Origin: Zootoca vivipara
Taxonomy: Eukaryota
Direction: 5' to 3'
Length of the DNA stretch: 64,000 nucleotides
Assembly (NCBI RefSeq): GCF_963506605.1
Contig: NC_083279.1
Span: 620,001 to 684,000, forward strand
Below the pieces are notes generated by a model. The model was not told the origin of the DNA. It was given only the letters and a program-made list of their open reading frames with translations, and searched no databases. Positions 18,957-50,839 of this stretch are shown here, one piece after another. Each line of letters begins with the position of its first letter. Position 1 is the first letter of the stretch. The translations under genes were made by a program, and so were the position numbers.

Positions 18957-19103
18957 TGAAGAAGTGTGGTATGTGAAGAAGTGTGCATGCACACGAAAGC
19001 TCATACCAAAATAAAAAAGTTAGTTGGTCTTTAAGGTGCTCCTGGAAGGATTTTTTTTATTTTGTTTCAACTACGGCAGACCAACACGGCTACCTACCTG
19101 TAA
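18957..19103 (+). mobile_element. Penelope-like element 3' fragment with mutated hammerhead motif
   Basis: 12-bp TSD CTGGAGCAAATC (18945-56, 19104-15); GAAGAAGTGTGCATGCACACGAAAGCTCATACC ... CTTTAAGGTGC ... CTACCTGTAA. Confidence 0.82.
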
Positions 19104-19653
19104 CTGGAGCAAATCCTGAAACACAGGAGAGCAAAACTAGAAGTTTAAAATTTTAACATGTTTCTATCTGGAAAGCAGACTGGCTGGTACATGAAGTTGG
19201 TCATGTGCACCTCATGGTTATTAGTCTATTCTTGGTAATTATATGCTTCACCAGGATGCTATAGACAAGTTTTGCACCTACCACTGAACAACTTTCTCTC
19301 TTTAAGATGAGAGAGTCTGGCAGAAGCATATGTCCCCATGAAGGGTACTATAGTATGTTTGGTACCAATTGTATACGTATGTACTGTCTCTACTGTGATC
19401 ATTATGCTGCCTCCAAATTACTCTATTTGTGCATTAACTAGTCAGAGCCTGAGTACATTTGCTGCTTCTGGTGATGTGATTGAGTAAGTTTATTAAACTG
19501 ATCATTCATGAAGATATTGAGTAGATAGTAGAACTCTACACATGACAAAAGTATTTCATAATGTGGACTTAGAGGAATCTTTGCAAGAAAGCATCTACTA
19601 ACAGTATTCACCTTTTGATATGTGTGAAGTTTTAATTATAAATATATGCTTAG

Positions 19654-19778
19654 TTTCAGCAGAAAGCTTGGAGAAGAGCCTAAAACAGATGGAAAGGCAG
19701 CTTATACAACTTGAGAAGGATTTAGAGACCTTTCCCCTTTCTGAAGATATTCATGACAAATTTGTGACAAAGATGTCC
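19654..19778 (+). CDS. DIAPH3: DIAPH3 window exon 12 (FH2), followed by U12 donor
   Basis: CTTAG| acceptor; 125 nt; VSAESLEKSLKQMERQLIQLEKDLETFPLSEDIHDKFVTKMS; ends at |ATATCCTTTT. Confidence 0.93.
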
Positions 19779-20546
19779 ATATCCTTTTGCTGTTAAATAA
19801 CTTATCTGGCTTTGTCTAAGGTTCTTTAACACTTTTAAAATTTATTTGCATAATCTTTATTCAAGTTATAGCCATCACTTCTGACAACCCTGACCTCATT
19901 TCTACCTTGAATTACTAAGAACCTAAAACGGCTTTAATGAAGATTCACCTATAATTCATAATCTGAAGGTAGTACTGTGTCATCTCCAGTGGTTTGGCGT
20001 TTTCGTCATACAAGCATGAAAGTGCTCATTGAATGGAAAATATTACTGGAGGAAACAGTTGAGAAGTTGACTAGTTAAGCACTACAACTTAAATTGGATG
20101 GAAAACAGCTTAATTGAGAAACGAGGGAAGAGTTGCCAGTTTGGGGTATCAGTTCAGATTGCCCATTTTGATTATTTTTTTTAGTCTGAACTACAAACTA
20201 ATTTCAATTTTTTAAAGCTTTTCTCTCACTGTTTGGAATTCTATGTGTAATTATTCCTTTGAATTTATAGGAGCTGCCATCATTCTTTTCAATGAATCCT
20301 GTGCTTCTTATCTGCTAATTTTGGTTTTTTCCCTTTCAGATGCTTTTTGATGTGTGTTTTTTCCTGTGTCTGGCTTGTAATTCACTAAGAAGCAAGTAGC
20401 ATGATTAGCACAAAGACAGCACAGAGGGTTCCCCCCCCCACACACAAAAAGCAGATAGATGTGCTATTGTAGGTTTCTTGTTTTTGTTGGCCTAATAGGA
20501 AGGTTTAATGAAGGTATGAAAGAACTAATTGGCTGCAGCTCTAAAC

Positions 20547-20891
20547 CAGTGTTTCTCAACCTTTTTTGGGCCACGGCACACTTGTTACGTGAAAAAAATC
20601 ACGAGGCACACCACCATTAAAAAAGTTAAAAAATTTAACTCTGTGCCACCCTATATTATAATTGTGACTGTAAGAAACACTTGCCAAATATTGCTTTCCG
20701 GCAGGTCAGTGTAGTGTATTGGCGGCCGCCAGGCTTGTTTGCACTGAGCTTTGGGAAAGAGGAGGGGAAATATTGCTTTCCGGCGGGTTAGCCAGGCACG
20801 TGACAATGCAAATCGCCCTTCACGTCGCGGCACACCAGCCAGTGTCTCGTGGCACACTAGTGTGCCGCGGCACAGCGGTTGAGAAACGCTG
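20547..20891. mobile_element. hAT MITE (family C)
   Basis: TIRs CAGTGTTTCTCAACC / GGTTGAGAAACGCTG; perfect TSD CTCTAAAC. Confidence 0.92.
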
Positions 20892-21049
20892 CTCTAAACT
20901 ATTATGCTTCACATTCAGTTCCCATGACACTTCAGGTTACCAACCAGAGTAATTTAGCTTCCTCCAAGACGTAATGTTACCTGTTGGCCATTTGAGGCTA
21001 CAGAACATATTTTCATACTTAATACTTTGTAAGTGTTGTAAGTATTGTA

Positions 21050-22040
21050 CATATATATCTATTTATTTCTTAAAATGTATATACTGCCTGGTTGTAAAAA
21101 AACCTCAAAGAAGATTACAAAAAGAATAAAACAATAAAATTATCAATTAAAATAATTAACAACAGTTTGAATCAGCTATAAAGTAAAAACAGATTAAAGC
21201 ACACACCAACATGCTAGGTATCTGGGTAGGCCTAGCTAAACAAAAATATTTTAGCACATGCTGAAAAATGTACAGTGAGGGCACCTGCCCCATTATCGGT
21301 AGGCAACAAGTTCCAAAGTATAGGTGCTGCCACAATAAAATACTGATTTCTTACAAATGTGGCACCTGCAACAGCGCCACTTCTGCAAATTGAAGCAATC
21401 AAATGGGCCCATGTGGGGTAAAGTGTCTCTCAGGTGAACTGGTCCCAAGGGCTTTATATACTAATTGTAACACCTTGGCCCGGTAGCAAATCTGCAACTA
21501 GTGTTGATCTCTTAAGAGCAAATATTATATGCTGACAATGCCTTATTCCTGTCAGCAATTGTGCTGCAGCAATCTGTACTGACTGCAGCTTTCAGGTCAA
21601 CACAAGGGAAGCTCGACACAAAGAGCATTGCAGTAATCTAGTCTTGAAGTAACCAGAGTGTGAACTACTCTGACCAGGCTTTTCCTGTCTAGAAATGCTC
21701 ATAGCTGTCAAATCGATTGTAGTTGATAAAAGACACTTCTAGCCTCTGAGCACCTGAGCCTCCATTGACACAGATCCAGAAGCACCCCCATAATGCAAAC
21801 CTGCTGAGTGGAACCCCAAACCTGGGAGTGGAACCCCATCCAGGATAGGCAATTGACCAATTTCTCGGACATGGGAACCACTTGTCCATAGTGTCTCTAT
21901 CATGCCCGGATTCAAGCCCAGATTGTTTTCCATCATCTTTCTCACTACTGCATCCAAGCAGTTGCATGTCCAGGCCTGAACCCAGATTGGAATGAATCTA
22001 AATAATTTGTGTCATCCAAGCATACATTCAGCTGCCACAC
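21050..22040 (-). mobile_element. Degenerate L2-type LINE 3' portion
   Basis: Minus ORF remnants MENNLGLNPG..IGQLPILDGVPLP resemble the L2 RT C-terminus; tail toward 21050. Confidence 0.7.
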
Positions 22041-22567
22041 CACAGCCGTCCACCACCTCCCCCCAAAGTGGGTATATGCAACTGGTGAATAGTTGTCCAG
22101 AGGGTCCAGAGCTGGGGTGTTTTTAGGAGCGGCCGCACTACTGCCTCTTTCAAGGCAGCAGGGATCACCCCTTCACACCCACTGAATGGATATAAATGCA
22201 TACCATTTTAAAACAGTCCTGCCTGAAAGTCTCTTGCACCATACTGAGCGATGCTGTTTCTAAGTCACCAAGGTGCAATGACACTTCTATAGGTATTCAT
22301 GGCTTCTAGCTTACAAGTGTTTCTAGTGGAGACTATGACTGTCCAAAATTAGCAGTTGATCATCTGAATGATAAGGATTTGAAGCTCTCAAAATGGTTAG
22401 AGATTTTCTGTGCTTTCACATGTAAGCATGGCTAATGCATGCACATGGTAATTTTATTTTTGTCTTTGCTATCTTGACCGGCACCTTGAAAGCATTCTAG
22501 CATATACATTGCTTGCCTGAAGGACAGCACTGAACAGGAAAACTTATTCATAAACCCTACCTACAGG

Positions 22568-22943
22568 ATAAAAAATTTCCTTCAGTAGCACCTTAAAGAC
22601 CAACTAAGTTTTTATTTTGGTATGAGCTTTCGTGTGCATCCACACTTCTTCAGATACACTGAAACAGAAGTAGTCAGACCCTTATGTATATTCAGAGGGT
22701 GGGGGTGATGGGAATGGGTGATGGGCTGATAGGAGTGGTAAACCTGTTAATGACTGTTAATGACTGCAATTGGTCTTGAATATACATAAGGGTCTGGTGG
22801 ATTCTGTTTCAAGTGTATCTGATGAAGTGTGCATGCACACGAAACCTCATACTAAAATAAAAACTTAGTTGGTCTTTAAGGTGCTACTGAAGGAATTTTT
22901 TTATTTTGTTTTGACTCAGACCAACACGGCTACCTACCTGTAA
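22568..22943 (+). mobile_element. Penelope-like insertion with inverted 5' duplication and two hammerhead motifs
   Basis: Inverted arms ~22568-22692 and ~22780-22905; TSD CCTAC(C/G)TACAGG, 11/12 match; same 3' end as the 18957 copy. Confidence 0.85.
22620..22657 (-). ncRNA. Minimal type I hammerhead ribozyme motif (PLE-associated)
   Basis: Minus strand GUAU-CUGAAGA-A-GUGUG gaug CACAC-GAAA-GC-UC-AUAC: stem I GUAU/AUAC, stem II, palindromic AGCU in place of stem III. Confidence 0.65.
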
Positions 22944-25578
22944 CCTACGTACAGGTTTACACACAGGTTACTCTTATTTATAAGAGTGTATTATCTGAAA
23001 CTTCACAAAAATACCTCACCATTTCAATCAAATTCCCATGTGACACTTAAACAGATGGTTTGATCTTTAAACACTGTTAAGATGCAATAGTTAGCTCTCT
23101 TCTGCTAACACTCCCTATAGGCAGGGAATAATTGAGGAACAGTGGAGTTACATGTGGTTTCTGGTAATGGCTGTGAGCTTGCTAATTAAAGAAACTCACT
23201 TCCAGGAAAAGTGGAGTTACAATAAATTACAAACCAAAGGAGACTTGATGTAAAGGTTAGATGAACCTGCACAGCATGAAGAAGTTGGGGCCTGTCCGAG
23301 CTCTTATTGTTATGGCAGGGGAAGTTGAATGATGCTGATGTCTTTTGAAAGGCACACGGCTCGTAAAAAGCAGTCGGTGGGAAAGCGGAGACAGGAAGGA
23401 TGGGGCTTTGTGAAAACTAATTTTTCACTTGCCATACAATTACGCTCTGTAGGCAACTCGGCTATTACATCCTGTCACTAAATATCTCAACCTGGAGCCG
23501 GCTAATGAATTGATTAGCATTCATATTTCTTTTAGAAGTCAGATATGTGCACAGTCAGTGGGTTCTATTATTGATAGAATCTATAATTATATAAAAGACT
23601 TCCTTACTGGATTATTTTGTTAGCTGTCCATTGCAGTTGTGTACACTACTTTACATGCAATTAAATTCCCTTTTTTTTGTTTGCTGTAGATAGGAATTCC
23701 AGAGAAATAAAGCATGGAAAATTAAAACCATTTATGCAAACATTATGATGAAATGTAATTAAAATTACTTGATAGGTATAGATGTGCAAACAAGTTAAAT
23801 GAAAATTGGGTCCTTGAACAGTTTTGAGAAGCTCACATTTCTCTTTGATTATAATACAGGCACACCATTATCAAAATACACGATAAGCTCTAGAGCTCTT
23901 ATCTGCAAAAACAAATTGATAAAATACTTTTGTCAGTTTTTTCTTCTACCACTTTGTCACTTTAGAAAGCCATTTAAATATATATTGCAAGAGACTACAA
24001 ATCTATAAAAGTAATTTTGTGAACAGTTACTAAATGGTATTTTGTACTTCATACTTTTTCAGAATGACAGGAAAATAGTGTCTCAGTTTATCAAGAAAAT
24101 GACAGTTTTGGAAATAAAGCATTTTAGTACCCAGTTAAATTTTGCTTGATTAATAATAGTAATATGTTTTAATAGTGTGCTGATCCTTAAAGGGATTTGT
24201 ATAAATTGTTCTCTGTGAGATGATAGTATTGGCTATGTATGAAGATCTGTTGATGGAAAATCAAATTGCCACTGGAACCAACTTGATATAGGCACATAAT
24301 GAAAATGCCATCTGAATAATGACTTCCTATTATGCTTAGCAAAATCATAAGAACTGAGACTCTAGAAACACGGGGCAAGAAGTTTAGGAATATTGGTTCA
24401 GTTGTAACAAGCACATGTTAGATTTTCATTGTGCTTTTACTAGAATGGTTTGTTTAAGTATTAGGAGGTTTTTAAAGATTATCAGAAATTCAGCCAAAAA
24501 TCACAAAATGACATGTAGAGGAATAATATGAAGAAAAAGTAAAGTATCGGCTGAGGGTGTTGCAACGTGATCTGTAACATTGTGGTATACTAGATAAAAG
24601 AAAAAGTGATGATTACTAATTGTGAAAAATATAGATATGTTTAAGAAAATGTTGGCAATGTTGTGTATTTTAAACCAAAAAAAGGTGCAGAGGCATGGAA
24701 GTGAACAATTATGTGAGTGAACAGAAGTGAAAGTTTAATTAGAATATTAAAGTGCTGAACTATTTCCCAATACTTTTCTTTATTAAAATTACTGCCAAAC
24801 ATTAATTTTTGAGCATTAGTAAAATATTAGTTAGAGAACAGTAATTCTCAGTGCATTGATTTTGAGAAGGATCAGCAAGTTTGCTACCAAAGAAGTTCAC
24901 TTGTTTCAGAGGACTAGCGCTTTGAGTAACTAACCTATGTATGTATTTTCGCAGTGTTTAATTTGTGTTGTATTGGTGCCCAAGTAGAAATCCCTGATCT
25001 CTTATTTAGAGTATTTGTTCCCTGTTGGGGTGGGGGGGAGCAGCCTCCCAGAGCAGCTTACATGCAGTTACCGGTAGTTAAAGCAAGATACTCCCTCAAA
25101 TTTGTTATCTAAGTGGGACTTGGGTTGTGCAGAGGTAATTAATCTTTGAGGTATGAAAAATGTAGGAAGAATAGGAAGGAATTGAAAAATGCTGACTATG
25201 AGAAGAACTACATGCTTTTGGAGAGATGTTGTTACTGCTGATAACTTGCTATTTCCTCTTTCCTGGAAACTTAGTATTCTCCATTTATTTTGATTGATTG
25301 ATTGAATGAATGAATGAATGAATCCCGCTCCTCTTCCTGAAGAAACCCAGGCTGGCAAACAAAGCAAAAGAATTGTAAAACACCAAAAGTTTCTAAAAGC
25401 TTACTGTTAAAAACTTTCTTCCATCCAGTGATCTTGGAGTTGCCAGGAACAATATTCTTCAGCCACCAAACACCTGAGTAAATGGGAATGTTTTAAATTC
25501 TTCCTGAAAGTTAGTGAGAATGGAGACAGGTGCACTTCAAAGTCACAACCAATTTTGTAACCTTAACAAACTTAATAC

Positions 25579-25743
25579 ACCTTTGTAATTCAAGCACGGG
25601 AACAGTTCCAGAAACTCTTGAGGATGCATAACAGTATGGAAACACTCTATCGGAATGTAATGGAATTTTATGCCATCGATTGGAAGAAAGTTTCAGTAGA
25701 AGAATTTCTAACTGACTTGAACAATTTTAGGACAATGTTTATG
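25579..25743 (+). CDS. DIAPH3: DIAPH3 window exon 13 (end of FH2)
   Basis: After U12 AC acceptor; |GTAAAC donor; 165 nt; TFVIQAREQFQKLLRMHNSMETLYRNVMEFYAIDWKKVSVEEFLTDLNNFRTMFM. Confidence 0.93.
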
Positions 25744-25980
25744 GTAAACCATATGACTATCAAATTCTAGACTCTGCAGAAGTAGTATAGATGAATATGA
25801 TTTTGCTTCACAGGTTCAGCTGTTCTTTACATCACTAAGAGCAGCCAGCCACAACTTTGTGTCTCCATATATTGTTGGACTACAATCTCAGCATGGCCAG
25901 TGGTCAGACATGTTGGAAGTTACAGTCCAACAACATCTGGTGGACTGAAGGTTGGGGAAGGCTGACTAGAAAGATGAGCA

Positions 25981-26195
25981 CCGTATTTTTTCGTTCCATA
26001 GGACGCACCTAGGTTTTAGAGGAGGAAAACAAGAAAAAATCTTTTTGCTTTCTTGAATTGTCCTAGGCGTGGCTTTGGCTCTGTCTCAGGCTTTTGCGTG
26101 GGCTCTGGCTCTCGCATTCGCTCCATAGGATGCACTGACTTTTCCCCTTCCTTTTTGGGAGGGAAAAAGTTCATCCTATGAAGCGAAAAATACAG
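25981..26195. mobile_element. Tc1/mariner-type MITE (CCGTATTTTTCG family)
   Basis: CCGTATTTTTTCG ... CGAAAAATACAG-TA; relatives at 30158-30443, ~31870-32281, 41026-41193, ~45960-46101. Confidence 0.75.
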
Positions 26196-26900
26196 TAGGT
26201 ATTTTGTTGGTCGCAGCAACCTAATACAAGCATGGTGGACCATTTCACCCCAAGTTACATGATGCATTTGAAAGAGCAGCTACTAGTCTAGGTATATAAC
26301 TGTGCCACTGCCTCTTACTTCAAGTGTTCAGGGGTGAGTGTTGATCCTGATTCTTACATACCCATAATAGTTTGATCTCTCATATTAGTACAAAAGGCAG
26401 GTCTCTGCATGCTTGGGGTTTCCCAAGGTATGCACAAATACAAAAAATATTTATCATAAATAAATAGAATGGGGCAACCCTTCCCTGCCACCCCTCCCCC
26501 CTAAACAAAACATAACAGTAAAAGCAGGGAGGAATAGCAAGTGGATGCGCAGGTGAGAAGAGTGGTCTACAAAAATTGCCCACTCACTGCATGAACATCC
26601 TTTTTTTAAGATTATGGCATTACGGCTCAACAGCTGGACTGACTTGGGTGTGTGCAAGAGGAAGACGTGAATAGTTTGAAGGAGTGAAAAGGGGGTAGGA
26701 AAGGCAAGTGATGCCAGCTTTTAAAAACAACCCTAGTACTATAACAGATTATCCTGCTGTGATGGTGTTTTATTGTTGTAAACTCTTTTAGGATTTATTT
26801 TCAAATGAAAAGCAGCATAGAAATTATTGTAAACAGGCATGTAGATATTTTTCTAAGTCATAATTGTTTATGCTGGTGAAATTTTAATATATTTTGCTAG

Positions 26901-27036
26901 CAAGCTGCAAAGGAGAATATGAGAAGAAAAGAAGCAGAAGAAAAGCAGAAACTTGCTAGAATTGCTAAAGAAAAAGCAGAAAGGGAAAAAATAGAAAGAC
27001 AAAGAAAGAAAAAGTGTTTGCTGGAAATGAAAACAG
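26901..27036 (+). CDS. DIAPH3: DIAPH3 window exon 14
   Basis: TTTGCTAG|, |GTAATG; 136 nt; QAAKENMRRKEAEEKQKLARIAKEKAEREKIERQRKKKCLLEMKT. Confidence 0.95.
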
Positions 27037-28111
27037 GTAATGTGGACAGGAACCTTGTTATTTTAGGTAGTAATACTGTTTTTGTGTTACTATCTTGATG
27101 GCTTCTAAAAGCAGAACTGGTTGTTTCACTTCACAAATGTGCTTAAATCATTTCAGGGCAATATTTTGCTTTCTGGAGAATTAAATTCCTATTTAATTCC
27201 AGTTAATGCCACACTTTCTTTGCTTTCCACATTTTTCTTGCCCTCAAGCTAACATTAAGATGCTCGGGAAATGTGGTGCACTTTGCCCATGCGCTGGCTA
27301 CTCTTACCTTACCTCTTGTTGTGCTAATGCCTGTCTCTTGGCTCTTGCTTTGGCATTAGGGTGCTAAGTAAGGTAAGTTCCTTGCTCACCCATGCCAGCA
27401 CTTAACTTAAAAAAAGAAAAGAAATCTCTTTCCTTGATTCAAGATGCTGCATGCTCCTACTTTTCAGCTTTGCACTGCACACCTCCCACAACATGTAGAA
27501 GTAGTGGGTAGGTACCTCCCAAATTTTAAGTGGACCTGAAATTGAAAAATGCTGCAACTGTATCCTAGGCCAGCCTTCCTTGACCTTGGATCCGCATATG
27601 GTGTTAACTACAACTCCCATCATCCCTGACCTGGCTGGTTAGGAATGGATTGAGAACATCTGGGGACTCAAGGATGAAAAAGGCTGCTCTAAACTAATCT
27701 ATCCATGCTGAAAATCCCATTTACTTTCTGAGCTGGAGGAGAGTTTACTGGGGACATGGTGCTCAGTTCATAATGTAGATTGTCATAAAAACTATCATTT
27801 TTAAACTTGATTTCTTCATCTTTTGTTCTGCTGATACAATTTCCTTACCATAGGGGGGGGGGAACTACTTATGATGTAGGTTCAGAGCTATGCTGCAATA
27901 CAATCAGCATATGCCTAAATTGTTAAAAAGGGGGTTGGCATTAGCTCAGTTTGTCAGTTGGCTCAGAAAGCATATCAGTTTCAGTAGGAGGAGAATATTA
28001 ATTTAAAGTTAGCAGTAAAAATGGTAACTTATTGCTGCCTATAGATTGTGCTTTGATCAAAAAATTTAAGGCAGTTTGCAATTCTGTCATCCCAGCTCAG
28101 CTGGGGCTCGT

Positions 28112-28490
28112 AAAATCATAGAAGAGACCCCAAGGAAGGGAAGGGACCTTCAAAGGGACCCCAAGGACATCTAGTCCACCCCCTGCAATGCAGGAACCTC
28201 AGCTAAAGCATCCATGACAGATGGCCATCCAACTTCTGCTTAAAAACCCCCAAGGAAAGAGAGTCCACCACCTCTTGTGGGAGTCTGTTCCTCTGTTGGA
28301 ACAGCTCTTACTGTCAGAAAGTTCTTCCTGATGTTTAGTCAGAATCTCCTTTCTTGTAACTGGAAGCCATTGGTTCAAGTCTACCCTCCAGAGCAGAAGA
28401 AAACAAGCTTGTTACATCTTCCATGTGACAGCCCTTCAGATATTTGAAGATGGCTATTATATTTACTCTCAGCCTCTTATCTAGGCTAAA
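28112..28490 (-). mobile_element. CR1 LINE 3' fragment
   Basis: AATCATAGAA tail, CATCTAGTCCA..CCCCTGCAATGCAGG, AAGCATCCATGACAGATGGCCATCC typical of reptile CR1 3' ends. Confidence 0.8.
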
Positions 28491-29321
28491 TTTTTTGAAA
28501 CGAAACAACTGCAAAATTGTTGTTGAATGGGAAGTATGTGTGCATATCTGCTTTATGTAGCTTTTTTGAAACTATGTAGCTTTATAAGACCCTATAGCAG
28601 AGAAACTAAACTGTTGGCTCAGAGGTAGTACTGGCTTCTGGACAATCCTCCCAAAGGCTGCAAGTCCATGGAAGGTGCAGCCAGTGAAATCAATGCCAGT
28701 GAAAGCATTGCTAAAGTTGGTATGACTACTTTGTACCAGCTATCTCTGGTTTGTGTCTCTGCATATGTGTGTGAACACACACACACACTTTCAGATCTAG
28801 CTATACTTTGAATGAATTCTGCTTTTTTAAATGCAGCGTTAAATTGTTTAAAAAATACAGAGGATCAAAGTATTTAGTGAATGAGAGTGTTTTCATGAGT
28901 GGACATTCAGAAATCCATAAATGATCCATTTAGGGAAGCAGAATCTGAACAACTAATTGTATGCAAATAATCATTTTCATCTTGTCCTACAAAGTAACCT
29001 GCTTCTGCAAACTCACATGGCTTTATGATGTGGCTTCATTCAGGGTTCAGAGATATTAGAAGCATATGAATGATGTTGCATTATATTAAAAGTTACTGCT
29101 CTATTTCATTTTAGGAGGCAGTGGTGTGAGGTGAATCAAATGAACTTTGGTCTGCATTATTGGACACAATATGAACACTAACAGGGCTGACTTCTTGGGT
29201 ATCTGATTTATGAGTAAATTAAAGGCTTGTCTGAATTTGGAATTGCCAGCTTTTTATTGCTACGGTTTCTTCTCCAGCTCTGTAAATCCTTTGGCATTGC
29301 TATGGTAACCATGAAAGCTGA

Positions 29322-29465
<144 letters not shown>

Positions 29466-29648
29466 TAGATTTAGGGCACAGGACTATTTACTGCAGAATG
29501 CATCAATTGGTGGAGAACTACTTGCAGTAACAACATTAAATGATAATTTGTAACGTTTTCAGAGTACATCTTTCCTTCCAGGAAACTACCTTTTGGAAAT
29601 ACACTTTTGTGTAAATATTAAACATATTTGTTTTCTTCTTCTTTTTAG

Positions 29649-29714
29649 ATACAGATGTGCCACACAATTTCAGCCCAACCTCTGAAAGACCTGTTCTGAA
29701 AGCTTGTAACCATG
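29649..29714 (+). CDS. DIAPH3: DIAPH3 window exon 16 (start 29649 or 29655)
   Basis: Two in-frame AG acceptors (29647-48, 29653-54); (DT)DVPHNFSPTSERPVLKACNH resembles the DIAPH3-specific RPVLKVCNH segment; donor |GTAATT. Confidence 0.88.
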
Positions 29715-32621: not shown

Positions 32622-32659
32622 TACATAGAAGTCTGTAGAGGCTACTTCAGTCCAGCTAA

Positions 32660-33037: not shown

Positions 33038-33173
33038 CAGGCATCCCCAAACTTCGGCCCTCCAGATGTTTTGGACTACAATTCCCATATTCCCCGACTA
33101 CTGGTCCTGTTAGCTAGGGATCATGGGAGTTGTAGGCCAAAACATCTGGAGGGCCACTGTTTGGGGATGCCTG
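33038..33173. mobile_element. hAT MITE family B
   Basis: Near-identical to 12052-12187; degenerate TSD GCCTAAGC/CCCTAATC. Confidence 0.9.
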
Positions 33174-33376
33174 CCCTAATCCCTCACAATAGTATTTTTT
33201 TCTGAGTAGTGGAGCTATGTTTTCAAAACCTTTTGTCATTTACTGTATATAGAACTTCGTAGCAAAGTAATAATCTCTTTGAGTGGTGGCATAAATTCCT
33301 CTATATTAATTTTGAGGGCCCATATTTGAAAGCCTTTCCATTAGCAAAATTTCTTCCCAGCATATTTACATTGGTG

Positions 33377-33383
<7 letters not shown>

Positions 33384-33423
<40 letters not shown>
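33384..33423. repeat. (TG)n microsatellite
   Basis: Direct observation. Confidence 0.95.
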
Positions 33424-33426
<3 letters not shown>

Positions 33427-36169: not shown

Positions 36170-36171
<2 letters not shown>

Positions 36172-39804: not shown

Positions 39805-40240
39805 GCTTAATAATTATAATTATAATTCTACCCCACCCACTCTGGACGGCTTTCAACAGAACATTAAAAACAAAACAAAACTTCAAACATTTAAAAACTT
39901 CCCTAAACAGGGCTGCCTTCAGATGTCTTATAAAAGTCGGATAGTCCTTGACGTCTGATGGGAGGGGGTTCCACAGGGCAGGCGCCACTACCGAGAAGGC
40001 CCTCTGCCTGGTTCCCTGTAACCTTACTTCTCACAGGGAGGGAACTGCCAGAAGACCCTCGGTGCTGGACCCCAGCATCCAGGTTGAACGATGGTGGTGG
40101 AGACACTCCTTCAGGTATACTGGGCCAAGGCCGTTTAGGGCTTTAAAGTTCAGCACCAACACTTTGAATTGTGTTCGGAAACGTACTGGGAGCCAATGCC
40201 TTTCAAAACTGGTGCTATATGGTCTCGGCGGCGACTCCCA
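39805..40240 (-). mobile_element. L2-type LINE 3' fragment
   Basis: APALWNPLPSDVK..FIRHLKAALFREVF on minus strand with (ATT)n tail. Confidence 0.8.
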
Positions 40241-40584
40241 TGAATATATTCTACCCCATGAATGTATCCAAGTATGCTGTGTCCCTGCTCTACTTTATCT
40301 GGGCCACTAATCGGGAGCTGCTTCGTGAGCTCTCGCTTATAAAACATGGTACATAAATACCTGAAATAAATTAAAATCTGTGGCACTCCAGGTATTGCTA
40401 GATTACAGCTCCCATCATCCCTGACCAGTGGCCATGCTGGGTGGGGCTGATGGGAATTGAAGTTGCAACACCTGGAGGGCCACAAGTTCCTCATTACTGA
40501 TCTAGGCTAAGGCCTTTATAGCAGACATTGTTTTGGATGTGCATCTTAAAAATATAAAGCGGCTGTGTTTTGAAGACCAGTATA

Positions 40585-40810
40585 CAGTGGTACCTCAGGT
40601 AACAGATGCTTCAGGTTACAGACTCCACTAACCCAGAAATAGTACCTGGGGTTGAGAACTTTGCTTCAGGATGAGAACAGAAATCCTGCACCAGTGACGT
40701 TGCAGCTGCAGGAGCCCCCATTAGCTAAAGTGGTGTCTCAGGTTAAGAACAGTTTCAGGTTAAGAACGGACCTCCGGAACAAATTAACTTCTTAATCCGA
40801 GATACCACTG
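40585..40810. mobile_element. Tc1/mariner-pogo type MITE
   Basis: TA-CAGTGGTACCTC ... GAGATACCACTG-TA. Confidence 0.85.
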
Positions 40811-41470
40811 TATTATGTAAGCACACTCAAGAGGTCAGATTAGCTATGGCTCCCTATATGTTATAACTCTTGCTACTACTCCAGTTTTAGGAAACTTTAT
40901 GAGTGGTTCAGTGTAAATGCATTAACTGCCCAGATAGGACACTCTGGTATTTCAATTTTCGCTTTTTAAAATGTGTTATTTGTCTTCATTGAGCCTCAGA
41001 GGTCAGTAGGAAATAAGCTCAAATACCGTATTTTTTCTTCTATAAGACACCCCCATGTATAAGAACACCCCATATTTTTGCAGCAACAACCAATCGCCAG
41101 TCCACCCTCGGCACTATCTGTGTATAAGACGCCCCCTAATTTTTGACATTTTTAAATGGAAAAAACCCTAGTCTTATACACGGAAAAATGCGGTAAATAA
41201 AAATGACTAGGCTCACTGATCCTCAGCATTCTCATAGTTTTTGTCTAAATGCTTTCTAGTTTATATTGTGAAATGAGAAACAGGCCTTAAGGTTCTTAGT
41301 AGAACATCCTTTACTGGAACAATGTTGTTAATGTAAATCTGTAGCATTGTCTTTATTGATGAAGCATTATAGTGTTGAGCCATCTTCAGTTTTCATAGAC
41401 TTGGAAGGAACTCAGGAGTTATCTAGTCCAACTACCTGCACTTGTAGGTATCTCAACTAAAGCATCCATG

Positions 41471-41560
41471 CATAGCTGCCAAGTTATCCCTTTTTTTAAG
41501 GGATTTTCCCTTATGCTGAATAGGCTTCCTCGCGAGAAAAGGGAAAACTTGGCAGCTATG
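41471..41560. mobile_element. 90-bp hAT-like MITE inserted in a CR1 fragment (~41390-41605)
   Basis: TIR CATAGCTGCCAAGTT(A/T)TCCCTTTT; perfect TSD CATCCATG (41463-70, 41561-68). Confidence 0.88.
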
Positions 41561-42824
41561 CATCCATGACACTTGACCATACAACCTCTGCTTAAAAACC
41601 AATCTCAGTGCTGTGGTTAGTTGATACTGTTTTGAATGTGGGACCATCCTCTAAACTGCTTACTTCATTTCCTTTATCTTTTACAAGAAAGCAGTTGTAA
41701 TATGCTTGAGATTTTAGAAAAAACCATTAAAGATTTCTGTTAAATGTGTGTATCCTAACAGCCTGTGTATGTGTGAGAGAAAGAGCTTTGGCTTCTTCAA
41801 TTTCCATGGTTCAACAGAATTACATAGAAAACAAATGACCATTTTTATCATTTCTTCATTTCTGAAAAAATCATTTTAGTTAACCTAAATTCATTTTGAA
41901 TTAATAACTTGCAATGCACTTTGGAATAATTAAATTGCAGTGGCATACTTATCTTGTTTTTCCAAACAGACTTATCCCACCCATATAGAAGTCTGTACAC
42001 TACTGTTTGGTCAGCTCTGTTGCTTAAGAATAAATCATTTTCTTTTCTTTTTACATCAGTTGCTATAAAATATTAGCCACCTGTGAGAATTTGCATATTT
42101 GGAAGAACCTTCTGTTTGATTTTTTTTTGGCTGTATTCCAAGGTTTGTATGTGTGTTTTTAAATGGTTTAGAAAGGAAAGCAGAAATTGAGCCATTTCAA
42201 ATCTTTCTGGTTAATTACTCTTAGAGGCACTGTATGTTAGGAAAATAAAGACACAATTTCTTAATTAATCTTGAAAAAATAAAGCAAACATTCTGAAATG
42301 CCAGTGGGCAAATGCATGGGACAGAACCATGGCTATTCTGCTTAATAGCGATTATGTTGTACACAAGCTGAAGCCAGAGCCCTGTGTCGTCTGGGCAACT
42401 CCAGTTGCCATAGCAATGGAACTCTGTTGCAGGAGCAGGGTGAATGCTAATTGTAGCCATTTGTTGTTCCCTTCTGAGTCTTTAACTTAGCATGGTTGCA
42501 AAGCAGTCTGAGGTGCTGGGTGCGCAATATTGAGAACCCAAAAAGTACTGTTACTCAAGGAAACTGAATGCTTGACTTGGAAGTAATTATTTCAGCAGTC
42601 AACAGTGCTGACAGTGCCATTTTGTGAGCAGGGATACAATCTGATTTTGTTGATTGGAAAGGGAGAAATTCAGGGATAGAGAGCTGTTTAAAAGCTGGTT
42701 TGTTATTATTTATCTATTTCCAACATTTGTATGCCATTCCACACAGTTTACAGTTAGTAAGTAAGGATAATGCAAATATAATAATAAAAGACAAAACCTG
42801 TTTTTTAAAAAATGAAATGCCCGT

Positions 42825-42996
42825 TTAGAATCATAGAGTTGGAAGAGATCACAAGGGCCATCCAGTCCAACCCCCTGGCAAGCAGGAAACACCACCAAAG
42901 CATTCTTGACACATGGCTGTCAAGCCTCTGCTTAAAGACCTCCTAAGAAGGAGACTCCACCACACTTCTTGGCAGCAAATTCCACTGTCGAACAGT
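42825..42996 (-). mobile_element. CR1 LINE 3' fragment
   Basis: TAGAATCATAGAGTTGGAAG ... CATCCAGTCCAACCCCCTG. Confidence 0.82.
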
Positions 42997-43117
42997 TTAA
43001 AAGACCTGGGTGTCCCAAAGGCTGCAAAGATGGTGCCAGATGAGCTTCCAGTCTGCTCCATTACTAGGTGTCACTAATTAAAAGGGCTTTTATCTGGTAG
43101 TTATCCACCTCACATTA

Positions 43118-43515
43118 GAACCAATGTGGCACAATGGTTAGAGTGTTGGAGTAGGACTTGGGAGAGCAGGATTCGAATCCCCGCTCAGCCATGAAGGTCA
43201 CTGGTAACCTTGAGCCAGTCACAGTCTCTTAGCCTAACCTACCTCACAGGATTGTTGTGAGGATGAAATGGGGAAGAGGAGAACCATGTACATCAGGCAT
43301 CCCCAAACTGCGGCCCTCCAGATGTTTTGGCCTACAACTCCCATGATCCCTAGCTAAGAGGACCAGTGGTCTGGGATGATGGGAATTGTAGTCCAAAACA
43401 TCTGGAGGGCCAAAGTTTGGGGATGCCTGATGTACACCATCTTGAGATCCTTGGAAGATAAAGGTGATATATAAATGTAAATACTACTATTACTACTACT
43501 ACTAATAATAATAAT
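43118..43515 (+). mobile_element. tRNA-derived MIR/CORE-like SINE interrupted by hAT MITE
   Basis: A-box-like TGGCACAATGG, B-box GATTCGAATCC, CTCACAGGATTGTTGTGAGGAT core, (TAC/TAA)n tail. Confidence 0.75.
43294..43429. mobile_element. hAT MITE family B
   Basis: TIR CAGGCATCCCCAAACT; TSD ATGTACAT/ATGTACAC. Confidence 0.9.
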
Positions 43516-43974
43516 ATATGGTGGGTGTGTACATGGAGCAGGGTGTCTGAAGACAATTTTCCTGCATTGCAGAGAGTTGGACTAGATGACCCTTGAGGTC
43601 CCTTCCAACTCTACAATTATATGATTCAAGATCCTTAGGGATTTACCAGTTAAAAGCAGCTATTTAAATTTGGCCCAGAGACAGATTGAGAGTCAGTGCA
43701 ACAGACAGAACACAGAATGAATATGTTCAAATGACACAATCCAGTTAATAATCTTGCAACCCATTCTAGACAACTGCAATGTCCAGACCACTTTTAATGT
43801 CATGTATAGTGCATTACAGCCTAAATGAGAGTTTACCATGGCACCAAATGAAGCATTTTTCTTTGTAGATTTGGCTTGAGCCTGCAAAGAAAAAATGTTC
43901 CTTTGGATAAATGACTCTGCATAGGTACACTGGAAGCTTCCTTATTGGTCAACCTGGCTCAGTACTGTCTACAC

Positions 43975-44227
43975 CAGGGATAGGCAACCTAAGGCCCAGG
44001 GGCCGAATGCAGCCCAATCACCTTATCAATCCGGGCCGTGGACGGTCTGGGAATCAGTGTGTTTTTACATGAGTAGAATGTGTCCTTTTATTTAAAATGC
44101 ATCTCTGGGTTATTTGTGGGGCATAGGAATTCGTTCTTTTTCCCCCCTTCTAAAATATAGTCCGGCCCACCACATGGTCTGAGGAATGGTTGAGCGGCCC
44201 CCTGCTGAAAAAGGTTGCTGACCCCTG
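43975..44227. mobile_element. hAT MITE
   Basis: CAGGGATAGGCAACCT / AGGTTGCTGACCCCTG; perfect TSD GTCTACAC. Confidence 0.88.
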
Positions 44228-44389
44228 GTCTACACCCATGGTTTCAGACATAGACAAGTGAAACCAACTGCCTGCCTGTCTCTTTGATCCTTGCCCATGT
44301 TGGCTAATAAAAGCAAGCCTGGAAGGACTGGATGATGGGCTCCACGGGGTGGTGAATGCTTCCCTCTGTGTTGGGAGTCTTCCCAGACG

Positions 44390-45635
44390 CATTGAAAGAA
44401 GTGGTAATTAAACTGCTTCTTAAAAAAACATATTTGTACCTGGCCACAATGGCCAACTATCGTCCAGTCTCCATTCTCCATTCTTGAGTAAGGTGATTGA
44501 GTGGGTGGTCTCTGAACAACTCCAGGCATGTCTGGAGGATGCAGACCATTTGGATTCCTTCCAATCGGGATTCAGGCATCATCATGGGACTGAAACTTGG
44601 TCATGTTGGTTGATGATCTCCAGCAGGCTAAGGACAAAGGTGAAAGCTGCTTCACAGTTCTGCTGGATCTCTCAGCGGCCTTTGATACCATCGACCATGG
44701 TATCCTTCTGGAGTGGCTAGAGGGGATGGGAGCTGGGGGCACTATAATATAGTGGTTCTGCTCCTTCCTCCTGGGTCGTGTCCAGAAAGTGGTGTTGGAG
44801 AATGAGTGTTCAGACCCTGGGCTCTCACTTGTGGGGTGCCTCAGGGTCCCGTCCTCTCCCCTATGCTTTTCAACATCTATATGAAGCCGTTGGGAGAGAT
44901 CATCAGGGGGTTTGGGCTGGGTTTTCATCAGTATGTGGATAATGTACAGCTCTACCTCTTTTAAATCAGAACCGGTGAAGGTAGTGAATGTCTTGTGTGA
45001 GTGCCTGAAGGTGGTTGGAGGATGGATGGCAGCTAACAGATTGAGGTTGAATCCTGACAAGACAGAAGCACTGTTTTGGGGGGCTAGGGGGTGGGTGGGG
45101 GTGTAAAGGTAAAGGGCCCCCTGACCATCAGGTCCAGTCGAGGGAGCCGGCGTTTGTCCGCAGACGGCTTCCGGGTCATGTGGCCAGCATGACAAAGCTG
45201 CTTCTGGCAAATCAGAGCAGCGCACGGAAACGCCGTTTGCCTTCCCGCCGGAGCGATCCCTATTTATCTACTTGCACTTTGATGTGCTTTCGAACTGCTA
45301 GGTGGACAGGAGCTGGGACCGAGCAACGGGAGCTCACCCCATTGCAGGGATTCGAACCGCCGACCTTCTGATCAGCAAGCCCTAGACTCTGTGCTTTAAC
45401 TCACAGCGCCACCTGGGTCCTGGGTGGGGGGTTTAACTGCCCCTAAAGGACCAGGTGCACAGCTTGGGAGTAATTTCAGACTCACAGCTGTCCATGGAGG
45501 CACAGGTCTATTCTGTGTCCAGGGCAGCTGTCTACCAGCTCCATCTGGTACACAGGCTGAAACCCTACCTGCCCGCAGACTTTTCTCACCAAAGTGGTGC
45601 ATGCCCTGGTTATCTTCCTCTTGGACTACTGGACT
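44390..45635 (+). mobile_element. L2-type LINE RT fragment (frameshifted), split by a Sauria SINE
   Basis: NYRPVS, FQSGFR..HGTET, DLSAAFDTIDH, GVPQG, WMAANRLRLNPDKTE motifs. Confidence 0.88.
45103..45420 (-). mobile_element. Sauria SINE (Squam1)
   Basis: GTAAAGGTAAAGG tail, GGGTCATGTGGCCAGCATGAC, B-box GGATTCGAACC, CACAGCGCCACC head; flanked by TGGGTGGGGG duplication. Confidence 0.9.
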
Positions 45636-46230
45636 TCTGGAGGGTGCCAAGGAAGAGGCTAGGCTGGACATGTAATTAAAAATAAGACATCCCCTGAAAA
45701 TAAGCCATCGTGTTTTGTTTTGTTTTTTGAGGAAAAATAAATATAAGACGGTGTCTTATTTTCGTAGAAACATGGCACATAGCATAGGTAGAGAATTACA
45801 GACTGTGCAATCTACATAAAGGAATCAATTATATGTGTACAGAAAACTACGATATGTGCTCTGGTTGTCCACCCTTTTTCTTTTTCTTACCAGGCCTATT
45901 TTATTGTACAACTGGTTGTATATTACTGGAGCAAGAGAAGCTTCTATTACAAAGACATACTGTATTTTTTCATGTATAAGATTTTTGGGTTTTTTTAACA
46001 AAAAAATTAGGTTTAAAATGGGAGCTCGTCTTATACATGGGTAGTGCTGAGGGGTGTTTTCTTAATCTGGAGTCCCCCCAAATAGGGGATGAAAAATACA
46101 GTATGTATCTAAAAGAATAAATGATCAGAGCACATCACCTACAGTAGGCCTGTATTTGAGCTATACATACGGAAACATCCTAAGAGATGGCCCAACAAGT
46201 AAAAAACTCATTGCTGGTGGAATGCTTGTA

Positions 46231-46469
46231 CAGTCATACCTCGGGTTGCGTCCACTGCGGGTTGCGTTTTTCTGGGTTGCAAACGCGGCAGACCCGGAAG
46301 TGTTTACTGCTGGGTTCTGCTGCATGCGCAGAAGTGTTTGCGCTTCACATGCGCAGAAACGCTCTATTGCGCTTTCACGCATGCGCTCTATCGCCGCTTG
46401 GGTTGTGGACTTTTCGGGATGCGAACGGCACCCCGGAACGGATTGGGTCCGCAACCCGAGGTACCACTA
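46231..46469. mobile_element. Tc1/mariner-pogo type MITE, CpG-rich
   Basis: TA-CAGTCATACCTCGGGTTGCG ... CGCAACCCGAGGTACCACT. Confidence 0.8.
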
Positions 46470-48845
46470 CATCACAGAGAAAAGTCGCATCATAACATTT
46501 TAGCTTTCTGTAGACATAGGGTGTTTGTGGGCAAGTGTCTAATTCCCTACCTTTTGTTCTGCAGTGGTATAGTCCCAGGAAAAATGCCATGTAATGTTTC
46601 TGAATATATGAAGATATTCTGTCTTCAGCATTGAAAAATGATTCCTCAGGTTCCCAAGTTCTTTTATAGCAAGGAAACACACAGAACTCTTGAGTGTGTT
46701 TCTAATAGTTAGCAGATGTAACATTTCAAATAGTTGGAATATTAACTCATATGGACTTGCTTTGATTAAAGTTAGTAGCACTATAATGATAATGTGATAA
46801 CTGATGAAAATGTTCATATACTATATGAAACTTATAGTTTACTGTGGATTTACAGGGTTTGAATAAAAATTAGATGGCTCTCTGATTCTGATAGCAATAT
46901 GACCTTTATTCTGTGTATATATGTTGAATTTATTTCAAATACAGCAAATGGCTTCTATCCCTTTATACTTGGGATTTATTATGTACACAGCTGTTTAAAA
47001 TGAAATTGCATTACTATTTCAAAAGATGATCTCAGGCAAAAGACATTTTGATGAGCTCTTCATAATGCTTTCTTCCTCTGCCCAAATCTTCTCCTTGCAC
47101 TTCCATTTCATAAGTCAAGCTTCCTATGGATTCAAAGAGCCCTGTAAAAGCACCTAAAGCACTTATACATGTTAACAGATGTTCTCTTAATTTTTCTCCC
47201 TTTAAGCAACATTCTTCTCACTTTATTCTGTTCTACTCCAAAAGGACCCCACACTCAAGAACAGATGGGGCGTGGAAGCACATCTGAATCTTTCAGGTGT
47301 CATTGGTATCCAAAATAACCCCCACTCTATTTTTGTCATCTTCCTCCATCTCTTCCACGCCTCACTTCAAAAGCCACTGCTTTAACAGTACCGTTCTTGA
47401 GGTATCCCATCCTTTAACTCAATTTCCAGTGCCATCTTGTACTTTTCATTCACTGCCCCTACTCTTTATATGTTTGCATTTTAAAGGTCTCTAGACCGAG
47501 ACCATGTAGCTTCTGAGTTTTGTGCAGCCCCTAGCACACTCTAGCCACTTTAAATAGTGGTATTAATTTCCTTTTTGTCTGTACTGCACCTGACAGTCCT
47601 CAACTTGAGTATGTCGCAATTTAGTCATCATGAATAGCTTTTGAATAACATTTGTCCTTTTCTTGATTTATGTCCTAAACGATTCCTTACTTCATTATAA
47701 AATGATCAGCATATTATGAAGTGGGAATGTAAAGAGAATTTATCAAGGTAAACTGCAGCTAGTTATCCCATTGAAGTTATGTCACAGATATTTCAGCAAG
47801 GTCCCTGCCTCTGGCATTTACTATCCAAATGACTTGTGGCAGAAGATTATAGATCTTTCTTAGGAGGTAAAGGTTGGAGTGATTCCACCCCCCACCCCAT
47901 TGAAGGCAAGTATTGGCTTATTTAATAGTTCTTCCTTCTGTCAAACCTGCATTCATTATGTACCATTTGGCTAATCTTACAGGTAAGGAAATACACAGTT
48001 CTGTGACTTCATGGCCTCTTCTCATCTATAGTAAATTTGACTTATCAAGGGCAAGCCATGAGAGCACAGCTTTTCTGCAGGTTTGATGGGGAATGTCAGC
48101 TGCTATACCTTTGCAAGGATCCTTGGGGATTTTAGTAACAAGTCTGATATAACTGTAAAAAGCATCAGCTATTCTGGCTGATTTAACCTCATACAGCATT
48201 TGTAGTAGATGGGAAGAGCACCTGCCTATGGTTGCATAAATAGGTAGAATGCTTCAGGTTGTTTTACATGGTGTTATATTTCTTCCACTAAAAATATAAA
48301 TGAAAAACACAATGGATTACATAGGCTGCATTATGAAAGGCATCATATAGCAAGTTTTGAGACTATTATCATTATCTCTTGGTTCCCATCTGCAATGGCT
48401 CCCCCCTTTTTTACTCTATCCAAAATATAATGAATGCCACAGTCCATAAATATATGAAATCCAGGCTAGGACATTGCTTTTGTGGTAAATTAAAGTGGCA
48501 GGTGGCTACCATGGATGAGTAATACGAGGTAGGCTTGGCTTCCTTTCAAAAATGGCATTGCCACCACCCAACACTAAAACACTGCCTGGAGGTCTGATGA
48601 GGAGGGTGGTAAGTTGTGCTGCTACTGTTGTCATTGTAGAAGCAGCCGCCGATCAGAGGGTGGAATGCAGCCCCATTGAGTGTGTATCTATGTTGGGGGC
48701 AGCATTAGAAGCACTTTGCCTAAGCCCCCCAACTCTGGTTGGTGCCAGCCTTGCCTCAAAATATATCTTCACATATTTTCGGCATGGAAAATGCTTTTTC
48801 TCAAAATGTACTTATTTAAAGTACTTATTTATATTTATATATTTA

Positions 48846-50525
48846 TAAACGAGCAATGCAAAAAAATAGAGGAAAACAACAGAATGGGAAAAACCAGAGA
48901 TCTGTTCAAGAACATTGGAGATATGAAAGGAAGATTTCGTACAAAGATTACCATAATAAAGGACAAAAGTGGAACAGAAGCAGAAGACATCAAGAAGAGG
49001 TGGCAAGAATACACAGAGGAATTGTACCAGAAAGATATGGAGGTCTCGTACACCCCAGGTAGTGTGGTTGCTGACCTTGAGCCAGACATCCTGGAGAGTG
49101 AAGTCAAATGGGCCTTAGAAAGCACTACTAATTACAAGGCCAGTGGAAGTGATGATATTGCAGCTGAACTATTTAAAACTCAGCAGTGGCCAGAGGATTG
49201 GAGAATATCAGTCTACAGCCCAATCCCAAAGAAGGGGAGTGCCAAAGAATGCTCCAACTACCGCACAATTGCGCTCATTTCACATGCTAGCAAGGTTATG
49301 TTTAAAATTCTACATTACAGGGTTAAGCAGTATGTGGACCGAGAACTCCCAGAAGTGCAAGCTGGATTTCAAAGGGGCAGGGGAACCAGAAACCAAATTG
49401 CAAACATGCGCTGGATTATGGATAAAGATAGAGAGTTCCAGAAAAACATCTACTTCTGCTTCATTGACCACGCAAAAGCATTTGACTGTGTCGACAACAG
49501 CAAACTATGGCAAGTTTTTAAAGAAATTGAAGTGCCTGATCACCTCATCTGTCTCCTGAGAAATCTCTATGTGGGACAAGAAGCTACAGTTAGAACTGGA
49601 TATGGAACAACTGATTGGTTGTTCAAAATTGGGAAAGGAGTACGACAAGGCTGTAGTGTATATTGTCTCTTGTTTATTTAACTTATATGCAGAATTCATC
49701 ATGCGAAAGCCTGGAATGGATGAATCCCAAGCCGGAATTAAGATTGCCGGAAGAAATATAAACAACCTCAGATATGCTGATGACACAACCTTGATGGCAG
49801 AAAGTGAGGAGGAATTAAAGAACCTTTTAATGAGGGTGAAAGAGGAGAGCGCAAAATATGGTCTGAAGCTCAACATCAAAAAACTAAGATCATGGCCACT
49901 GGTCCCATCACCTGGCAAATAGAAGGGGAAGAAATGGAGGCAGTGAGAGATTTTACTTTCTTGGGTTCCATGATCACTGCAGATGGTGACAGCAGTCACG
50001 GAATTAAAGGACACCTGCTTCTTGGGAGAAAAGCAATGACAAACCTAGACAGCATCTTAAAAAGCAGAGACATCACCTTGCCGACAAAGGTCCGTATAGT
50101 TAAAGCTATGGTTTTCCCAGTAGTGATGTATGGAAGTGAGAGCTGGACCATAAAGAAGGCTGATCGCTGAATAATTGATGCTTTTGAATTATGGTGCTGG
50201 AGGAGACTCTTGAGAGTCCCATGGACTGCAAGAAGATCAAACCTATCCATTCTTAAGGAAATCAGCCCTGAGTGCTCACTGGAAGGACAGATCCTGAAAC
50301 TGAGGCTCCAATACTTTGGCCACCTCATGAGAAGAGAAGATTCCCTGGAAAAGACCCTGATGTTGGGAAAGATTGAGGGCACAAGGAGAAGGGGACGACA
50401 GAGGATGAGATGGTTGGACAGTGTTCTCGAAGCTACCAACATGAGTCTGACCAAACTGCGGGAGGCAGTGGAAGACAGGAGTGCCTGGCGTGCTCTGGTC
50501 CATGGGGTCACAAAGAGTCGGACAC
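48846..50525 (+). mobile_element. RTE-BovB LINE, 5'-truncated, with frameshifts and stops
   Basis: EQCKKIEENNRMGKTRDLFK, ECSNYRTIALISHASKV, INNLRYADDTTLMAESEEELK, RRRGRQRMRWLD, AWRALVHGVTKSRT are characteristic BovB ORF segments. Confidence 0.96.
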
Positions 50526-50639
50526 TCGGAGCAGTTTACATAGTAAAATTGAGCAACAATGTACAGTGCTACCTTGGTTTAAGAACAGTTTAGTTTATGA
50601 ACCACTTGGATTAAGAACACTGCAAACCCGGAAGTAGGT

Positions 50640-50839
50640 AAAATAAAAAAATTCCTTCAGTAGCACCTTAAAGACCAACTAAGTTTATATTTTGGTATGA
50701 GCTTTCGTGTGCATGCACACTTCTTCAGATACACACGAAAGCTCATACCAAAATATAAACTTAGTTGGTCTTTAAGGTGCTACTGAAGGAATTTTTTTAT
50801 TTTGCTTCGACTCAGACCAACGCGGCTACCTACCTGTAA
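50640..50839 (+). mobile_element. Penelope-like fold-back insertion
   Basis: Perfect 12-bp TSD CCGGAAGTAGGT (50628-39, 50840-51); 72-bp perfect inverted arms 50640-50711 and 50732-50803. Confidence 0.88.
50695..50732 (-). ncRNA. Minimal type I hammerhead ribozyme motif (PLE-associated)
   Basis: Minus strand GUAU-CUGAAGA-A-GUGUGCAUGCACAC-GAAA-GC-UC-AUAC. Confidence 0.7.

Follow-up and report, generated by a model that had tools for sequence, protein, structure and literature searches.

Penelope-like elements (PLEs) are the sister group of telomerase; hammerhead positions are numbered here, and the geometry of standard target-primed reverse transcription is understood, in the usual way. PMC4209133 describes minimal hammerhead ribozymes in the PLEs of metazoans, including turtles and snakes, mostly as single dispersed copies, reports that single minimal hammerheads are inactive and dimers weak, and puts forward a rolling-circle model. 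PAc, a Poseidon element from Anolis carolinensis, carries a hammerhead that, according to PMC11167929, required the element's protein, was killed by the C3G change and was dispensable for in vitro insertion, while bioRxiv 10.64898/2026.07.22.740005 ties retrozymes to the pseudo-long terminal repeats (pLTRs) of PLEs. Here we describe a 64-kb stretch of the genome of the lizard Zootoca vivipara (positions 620,001 to 684,000 of NC_083279.1, hereafter the window), in which three insertions with hammerhead motifs, I1 (18957-19103), I2 (22568-22943) and I3 (50640-50839), lie in introns of the gene DIAPH3.

Our analysis indicates, with a probability of about 0.8 for the reading as a whole, that the three inserts are non-coding stubs of an endonuclease-bearing (EN+), likely Neptune-type PLE with an intact parent, that the hammerhead is likely a passive passenger, and that the stubs arose by the mechanism proposed below. 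A sequence-only reading of the window had instead emphasized the seeding of self-cleaving motifs into introns; stated in that way the observation would have little significance, since hammerhead-bearing Penelope stubs have been published for reptiles and about 15,700 copies are present in this genome. Our literature searches, whose reach did not extend to Repbase, Dfam and most subscription papers, found no publication on the lizard family.

The parent element and its stubs in DIAPH3

The assignment to a Penelope-like family, and the full-length parent with reverse transcriptase (RT) and GIY-YIG domains that it implied, are both borne out by a genome search. The parent was reached through genomic copies of the I2 end, upstream of which lie a GIY-YIG open reading frame (ORF) and then the RT. 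At one locus (L065) a single ORF matches Pfam RVT_1 (E 2.9e-12) and GIY-YIG (E 5.1e-5), the latter at the C-terminus, and at another (L097) an ORF of 901 aa is open. The parent unit is 3,030 bp long and is arranged head to tail, with 4,726 bp of 100% identity at one locus, and its common 3' end (tail GTAA) lies 8 nt upstream of the ATG. The protein has DKG at 308, YIDD, a CCHH-type motif composed of IVYAIKCQQCPSALYIG at 799 (two Cys between GIY and YIG) and His at 828, 844 and 850, and a CX4CX2C linker, CNKPRCQLC at residue 761, between the RT and the endonuclease; the nearest named proteins are unannotated turtle ORFs with 69-70% identity, which bear no clade name. Because a cysteine linker separates Neptune and Nematis from Penelope and Poseidon in PMC8557442 and PMC3846280, the family is likely of the Neptune type.

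The copies also have the anatomy of EN+ PLEs, namely partial tandems forming pLTRs, an inverted 5' copy, a tail of 30-40 bp at one end and a target-site duplication (TSD), and I2 and I3 each show an inverted arm together with a tail. Genome-wide we counted 12,658 exact tails, 297 tail-to-ATG junctions and 15,699 exact hammerheads, and the reversed control patterns gave 0 matches. Recent activity, also claimed from the sequence alone, holds at the level of the family, whose tandem units are identical or nearly so; the differences among many full-length copies amount to less than 1 base in 100, and the family is therefore very young. The features of the window that bear on these points are the following, the four hammerhead copies having been located by a scan with the I3 motif.

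18945-18956 (right copy 19104-19115), + strand: left TSD of I1 (CTGGAGCAAATC), exact 12 bp
18957-19103, + strand: I1, a solo pLTR stub with tail, in direct orientation
18969-19006, + strand: hammerhead copy in I1 with the core change C3G (GTGAAGA), sense to DIAPH3
22556-22567 (right copy 22944-22955), + strand: left TSD of I2, 1 mismatch
22568-22778, - strand: inverted arm of I2, tail-less, from unit position ~2983 (second inferred RT start) back beyond the TATA-like box
22657-22620, - strand: hammerhead copy in the I2 inverted arm, core intact, one loop II change (GAUG), antisense to DIAPH3
22777-22943, + strand: direct arm of I2, with the TATA-like box (~22781-22789), then the hammerhead, then the tail ending GTAA
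22815-22852, + strand: hammerhead copy in the I2 direct arm, GAAACCTC, CUGANGA and GAAA boxes intact, ACCU replacing the palindromic AGCU, sense to DIAPH3
50628-50639 (right copy 50840-50851), + strand: left TSD of I3 (CCGGAAGTAGGT) within an AAC-N12-GTT site, exact 12 bp
50640-50734, - strand: inverted arm of I3, tail-less, unit 2986 to 2893, stopping one base ahead of the hammerhead, at the inferred RNA 5' end
50732-50695, - strand: hammerhead copy in the I3 inverted arm, intact, antisense to DIAPH3
50729-50839, + strand: direct arm of I3, beginning within stem II, where it overlaps the inverted arm by a short ACAC, and finishing in the tail
5561-5872, + strand: DIAPH3 FH1/FH2 exon (5561-5875 is 99% identical to a lacertid DIAPH3)

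All three inserts end with CTACCTACCTGTAA, as expected from the proposal that they are separate insertions with one common 3' end. The duplications of 12 bp attributed to them have that length in every case; the copies are exact for I1 and I3, but those of I2 differ by one mismatch. The placement in DIAPH3 introns is likewise correct for the three inserts. The gene lies on the + strand and has 16 exon matches in the window, spanning 2-29722; I1 is found between exons ending at 16755 and starting at 19653, I2 between 19778 and 25579, and I3 in the last intron, which is 61 kb long. I1, whose first 12 nt duplicate the 5' part of the hammerhead, corresponds to unit positions 2894-3022 with 88.9% identity and belongs to the ACTACG-type subfamily. 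I2 and I3 are head-to-head fold-backs, which the sequence-only reading had missed, with arms of 98 nt (93% complementary) and 75 nt (99%), respectively.

The density of the family around these inserts is that of the genome at large. For a stretch of 64 kb, 0.56 exact tails and 0.70 exact hammerheads would be expected; the window has 2 (P=0.11) and 1, respectively, which amounts to no local enrichment over the genome average. Only two more hammerhead copies, both outside the coding span, occur in the 264 kb around and including DIAPH3. Three stubs in 64 kb are ordinary because the genome contains so many copies. With 87-99% identity to the youngest unit, the inserts represent older subfamilies and not the most recent wave; they are solo or head-to-head and do not form the two or more consecutive tandem hammerhead units by which non-LTR retrozymes are recognized.

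Several other observations concern the same inserts. The fold-backs at 22563-22909 and 50640-50803 would give long double-stranded hairpins (98 and 75 bp) in the DIAPH3 pre-mRNA, and such hairpins are a more plausible host effect than cleavage. I2 contains two back-to-back TATA-like boxes, each followed by a hammerhead, and could act as a divergent promoter with one arm antisense to DIAPH3. I3 appears nested in another repeat at 50562-51100, likely a miniature inverted-repeat transposable element, which starts with TACAGTG(G/C)TACCT and has several copies in the window (families D5, D8 and D14); broken RT fragments resembling those of long interspersed elements occur in several frames at 48680-50535, directly upstream of I3.

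Insertion junctions and the start of the element RNA

To the three inserts we added further tail-bearing loci, giving a set of 165, of which 75 were chosen by similarity to query pieces (the three inserts included) and 90 by position on contig C1. TSDs were found at 113 of the 165 loci, compared with 2 of 330 decoy trials; the modal length was 12 bp (41 of 113), and 81 fell between 12 and 14 bp. The 41 sites of 12 bp form a symmetric AAC-N12-GTT pattern, with GT following the nick in 18 on the bottom strand and in 20 on the top strand (p<1e-8). An inverted, tail-less 5' arm is present at 68 of the 113 loci, which corresponds to the "inverted copy plus tail" anatomy published for PLEs (PMC8557442), and in 57 of these 68 the arm begins at unit positions 2980-2990, that is, 35-40 nt upstream of the tail end.

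At the tail end, the target and the RNA overlap by a mean of 2.07 nt in the 100 loci that were in register among 109 classified (4 that could not be classified were dropped), or by 1.90 nt if the 9 out-of-register loci are scored as zero, whereas permutation nulls had means of 0.77-0.91 and never exceeded 1.25 in 2,000 rounds each. Two subfamily groups differ (C or T) at the second base after GTAA, and the in-register target base at +2 follows the RNA base of the subfamily, with 17C:8T in one group and 16C:36T in the other (Fisher p=0.003); the same association is seen in the position-sampled set alone (13:6 vs 6:21, p=0.0025). Overlap is also found at the second site, 1.76 nt against 0.95, in the 37 of 68 inverted-arm loci that could be registered. 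The junctions suggest twin priming with primer-template pairing, in which both cut ends are briefly base-paired to the element RNA. Our searches yielded no publication in which a PLE makes a symmetric cut of 12 nt together with overlap between primer and RNA, although the supplementary figures of PMC11167929 may bear on this.

The other ends of the arms were analysed in the 90 position-sampled loci; 60 loci picked by their similarity to I1 or I2 were unable to end at the cut site and were excluded. Of the direct arms 14 of 90, and of the inverted arms 17 of 52, stop no more than 3 nt from the hammerhead's first base, about 30 nt after the TATA-like box, and this pile of ends persisted with subfamily-matched references on position-sampled loci, a check against a reference artefact. 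Arm junctions were also considered as marks of the hammerhead cut site and were rejected as such, given that just one direct arm out of 90 and one inverted arm out of 52 stop within 6 nt of it.

Three RNA-seq runs from one study, of which about 6% each was read, gave depths of hundreds to about 1,900 on the segment from hammerhead to tail, with the 5' half of the ORF mostly at 0-10, and 48-88% of the reads continue into unrelated sequence, a pattern that resembles passive transcription of dispersed stubs. At the predicted cut site the read ends of these runs do not pile up, a weak test because ordinary libraries capture such ends poorly.

From these patterns we propose the following mechanism. 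The element RNA would start about 30 nt downstream of the TATA-like box and begin with the hammerhead's first base. An endonuclease that probably acts as a dimer would nick each strand 5' of GTT, with a stagger of 12 nt, and so produce two 3'-OH ends; the bottom-strand end would pair over about 1-4 nt with the RNA just upstream of the AUG and prime reverse transcription internally, which would set the tail end, and the top-strand end would often prime a second cDNA 35-40 nt upstream. Priming so near the 5' end of the RNA would copy only a leader of about 130 nt, with run-off at the start site, and would account for the thousands of solo stubs, and two such cDNAs joined back to back would give I2 and I3. 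The template RNA would be uncleaved, or re-ligated, at the hammerhead, and any cleavage would matter for multimeric RNA of the element and not for host pre-mRNA. In a more comprehensive account, a dimeric GIY-YIG endonuclease would cut at AAC-N12-GTT, both 3' ends would prime at two fixed internal sites of the RNA selected by 1-4 nt of pairing, the solo stubs would come from run-off at an RNA start that coincides with the hammerhead, and hammerhead-dependent RNA circles would yield TSD-flanked retrozyme arrays straight from the active parent; for all of these parts to hold together, we put the chances a little short of even.

The hammerhead motifs and the competing explanations

The family motif and the two antisense copies of the window conform to the minimal type I hammerhead announced for these inserts, in that they have the features given in PMC4209133 (core boxes, a helix I of 4-5 bp, an extra base after A9, G10.1-C11.1 and a palindromic 15.2-16.2), and the general statement that PLEs carry minimal hammerheads agrees with the same source. 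The motif had, however, been assigned to all three inserts, and of the four copies only these two have the full set; the copies sense to DIAPH3 lack it (C3G in I1, ACCU for AGCU in I2), so that the motif is not intact on the element's strand in every insert. The I1 copy is predicted to be inactive because C3G abolishes cleavage in the PAc hammerhead (PMC11167929). The split between two mutated sense motifs and two intact antisense ones is not significant by itself (n=4).

When folded from the inferred RNA start, the family motif has predicted probabilities of 0.4-0.8 for stem I and about 0.9 for stem II. When the intact I3 motif is folded with its genomic surroundings, the predicted probabilities of both stems are 0.0, and the motif is predicted to be sequestered in the fold-back hairpin; for the I2 motifs in their own surroundings, the probability of stem I is 0.0. 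Minimum free energy z-scores of the four 48-nt motifs are weak (-0.4 to -1.4, with the exception of the C3G copy at -2.9), and folding energy therefore gives no support. A covariance-model scan, suggested with the hammerhead proposal, did not recover it either: the Rfam scan of the window returned 19 hits at E<=1, none of them a ribozyme, and its miRNA hits lie on fold-back repeats, below gathering scores. A palindromic repeat of about 140 bp occurs four times in the window (12052-12192, 33038-33178, 43294-43434 and 60595-60735), with a weak match to mir-5408, also below the gathering score.

Stem II is a palindrome (L097:4594-4631), and co-folding predicts dimers formed through it and not through AGCU. 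Among the first 100 of 214 variants of the hammerhead within the family, most are single uncompensated changes. Five diverged motifs elsewhere in the genome (L293-L297, e.g. G000:C5:10419966-10419995) keep the core and the GUGG/CCAC pairing with stem II sequences that are different yet paired; they have no recognisable ORF context and are probably relics of an older related PLE family. The family has also given rise to short arrays, flanked by TSDs, in which every unit is deleted in part and carries a hammerhead. One consists of about 10 identical units of 293 bp (G000:C3:91909011-91911899, L193:1512-4400) with a 10-bp TSD and an intact hammerhead in each unit, the unit combining the pLTR end with the ORF's first 135 nt, from which 11 nt are deleted. 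Others are built of internally deleted units that end at the canonical tail, 598 bp x4 (C1:2777319-2779741, L194) and 263 bp x2 (C1:22262855-22263441, L195).

The overlap and the fold-backs could in principle arise without pairing between primer and RNA, through a fixed endonuclease preference combined with microhomology-mediated repair by the host, or through snap-back self-priming of a single cDNA. The endonuclease preference is real, self-priming on an antisense template has been proposed for Penelope inversions in Adineta (PMC3846280), and yet permuting targets among loci, which preserves their composition, yields at most 1.25 nt against the 2.07 observed; moreover, the target base follows the RNA base of the subfamily, and the inverted arm begins beside the TSD at a fixed second site that has overlap of its own. 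We regard an origin without pairing as unlikely. Several points nevertheless count against the stub mechanism that we favour. PAc initiation is described as non-homologous (PMC11167929), and the same pattern could result if repair joined an over-long cDNA end to the target. Zero overlap is seen at 16 of the 100 junctions and only 1-2 nt at the three inserts, of which I1 departs from AAC-N12-GTT. The target sequences are reconstructions based on TSDs and not on empty alleles. A TSD was missing at 52 of 165 loci and the register could not be set for 31 of 68 inverted arms, so that the counts describe a subset. The RNA start was deduced from stub ends and the TATA-like box, the three RNA-seq runs have no pile of starts there, and the hammerhead structure could instead stall the RT at the same position. 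The Neptune placement comes from one motif.

As for the hammerhead, the proposal that the family seeds functional self-cleaving ribozymes into introns, where they would cleave or regulate the DIAPH3 pre-mRNA, for example as dimers, can draw on the complete features of two of the four copies, on the presence of two sense copies 3.8 kb apart in one pre-mRNA, and on the transcription of dispersed copies to which the reads running into unrelated sequence attest. It is not supported at DIAPH3, where there is no intact sense copy, and neither the genomic arm ends nor the RNA-seq reads show a trace of cleavage at the predicted site; the intact copies are antisense, the local density equals the genome average, single minimal hammerheads showed no activity and dimers little (PMC4209133), that of PAc depended on the element's protein (PMC11167929) and 8 of 9 Xenopus dimers gave no cleavage (bioRxiv 10.64898/2026.07.22.740005), all of which leaves this proposal highly improbable. 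A role at the level of the family, apart from the DIAPH3 stubs, deserves more weight: the hammerhead would cleave in vivo in multimeric RNA of the element, and ligated circles would be copied by rolling-circle reverse transcription into tandem arrays. The TSD-flanked 293-bp array and the 598-bp and 263-bp arrays speak for it, as does the preservation of the core in the five diverged motifs with re-paired stem II, and the locus-specific variants that tandem or inverted units of one locus have in common are compatible with it without being decisive. Against it, arm ends avoid the cut site, no read ends accumulate there (with the weakness of that test), the 293-bp array ends at the tail-less site, and the arrays could stem from tandem donors, template jumps, unequal crossover or assembly polishing, so we entertain it tentatively, as possible but not as the expected outcome. 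The family is very young and abundant, and its intact parents, its two subfamilies with different priming sites and its distinct target dyad open the way to direct tests of pairing, of twin priming and of the circle model; the junction result bears on how PLEs integrate and on what their hammerhead does.

Comparison with known Penelope-like elements

The lizard family resembles the EN+ PLEs of the Neptune clade (PMC8557442, PMC3846280) in having a single ORF with RT and C-terminal GIY-YIG, DKG, the CCHH cysteines and a CX2-5CxxC linker, as well as pLTR partial tandems, an inverted 5'-truncated copy, a 30-40 bp tail, a pLTR hammerhead and TSDs. It differs from them, as far as those accounts go, in its target, which is the symmetric AAC-N12-GTT and not a microsatellite, and in its tail, which ends 8 nt before the ATG and not within the ORF.

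With PAc (PMC11167929) it shares a lizard host, tandem repeats, a hammerhead in the pLTR, two adjacent internal RT starts that bound the tail, cutting and extension of both strands, an RTT-like motif at the nick (ATT in PAc, GTT here) and, as proposed for our family, an uncleaved RNA as template. PAc belongs to the Penelope/Poseidon clade and is without the Cys linker that our family has; its ORF begins within stem II and its RT starts lie 111-118 nt into the ORF, unlike the family described here. PAc initiation in vitro was non-homologous to the cut DNA, whereas here a mean overlap of 2 nt tracks the subfamily sequence.

The hammerhead itself is similar to the minimal type of PMC4209133 in its CUGANGA and GAAA boxes, its 4-bp helix I and its palindromic 15.2-16.2 without helix III, and differs in a shorter helix II of 5 bp with a 4-nt loop, which is itself a perfect 14-nt palindrome. 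With 15,699 exact copies, the lizard motifs are highly homogeneous and in this resemble the D. virilis case more than the variable families of that study. Finally, the short arrays elsewhere in the genome are like the non-LTR retrozymes (bioRxiv 10.64898/2026.07.22.740005) in having a hammerhead per unit and in being derived from pLTRs; in the lizard, however, they are 100% identical to parts of an intact parent and are flanked by TSDs, and the origin of the arrays is therefore directly visible.

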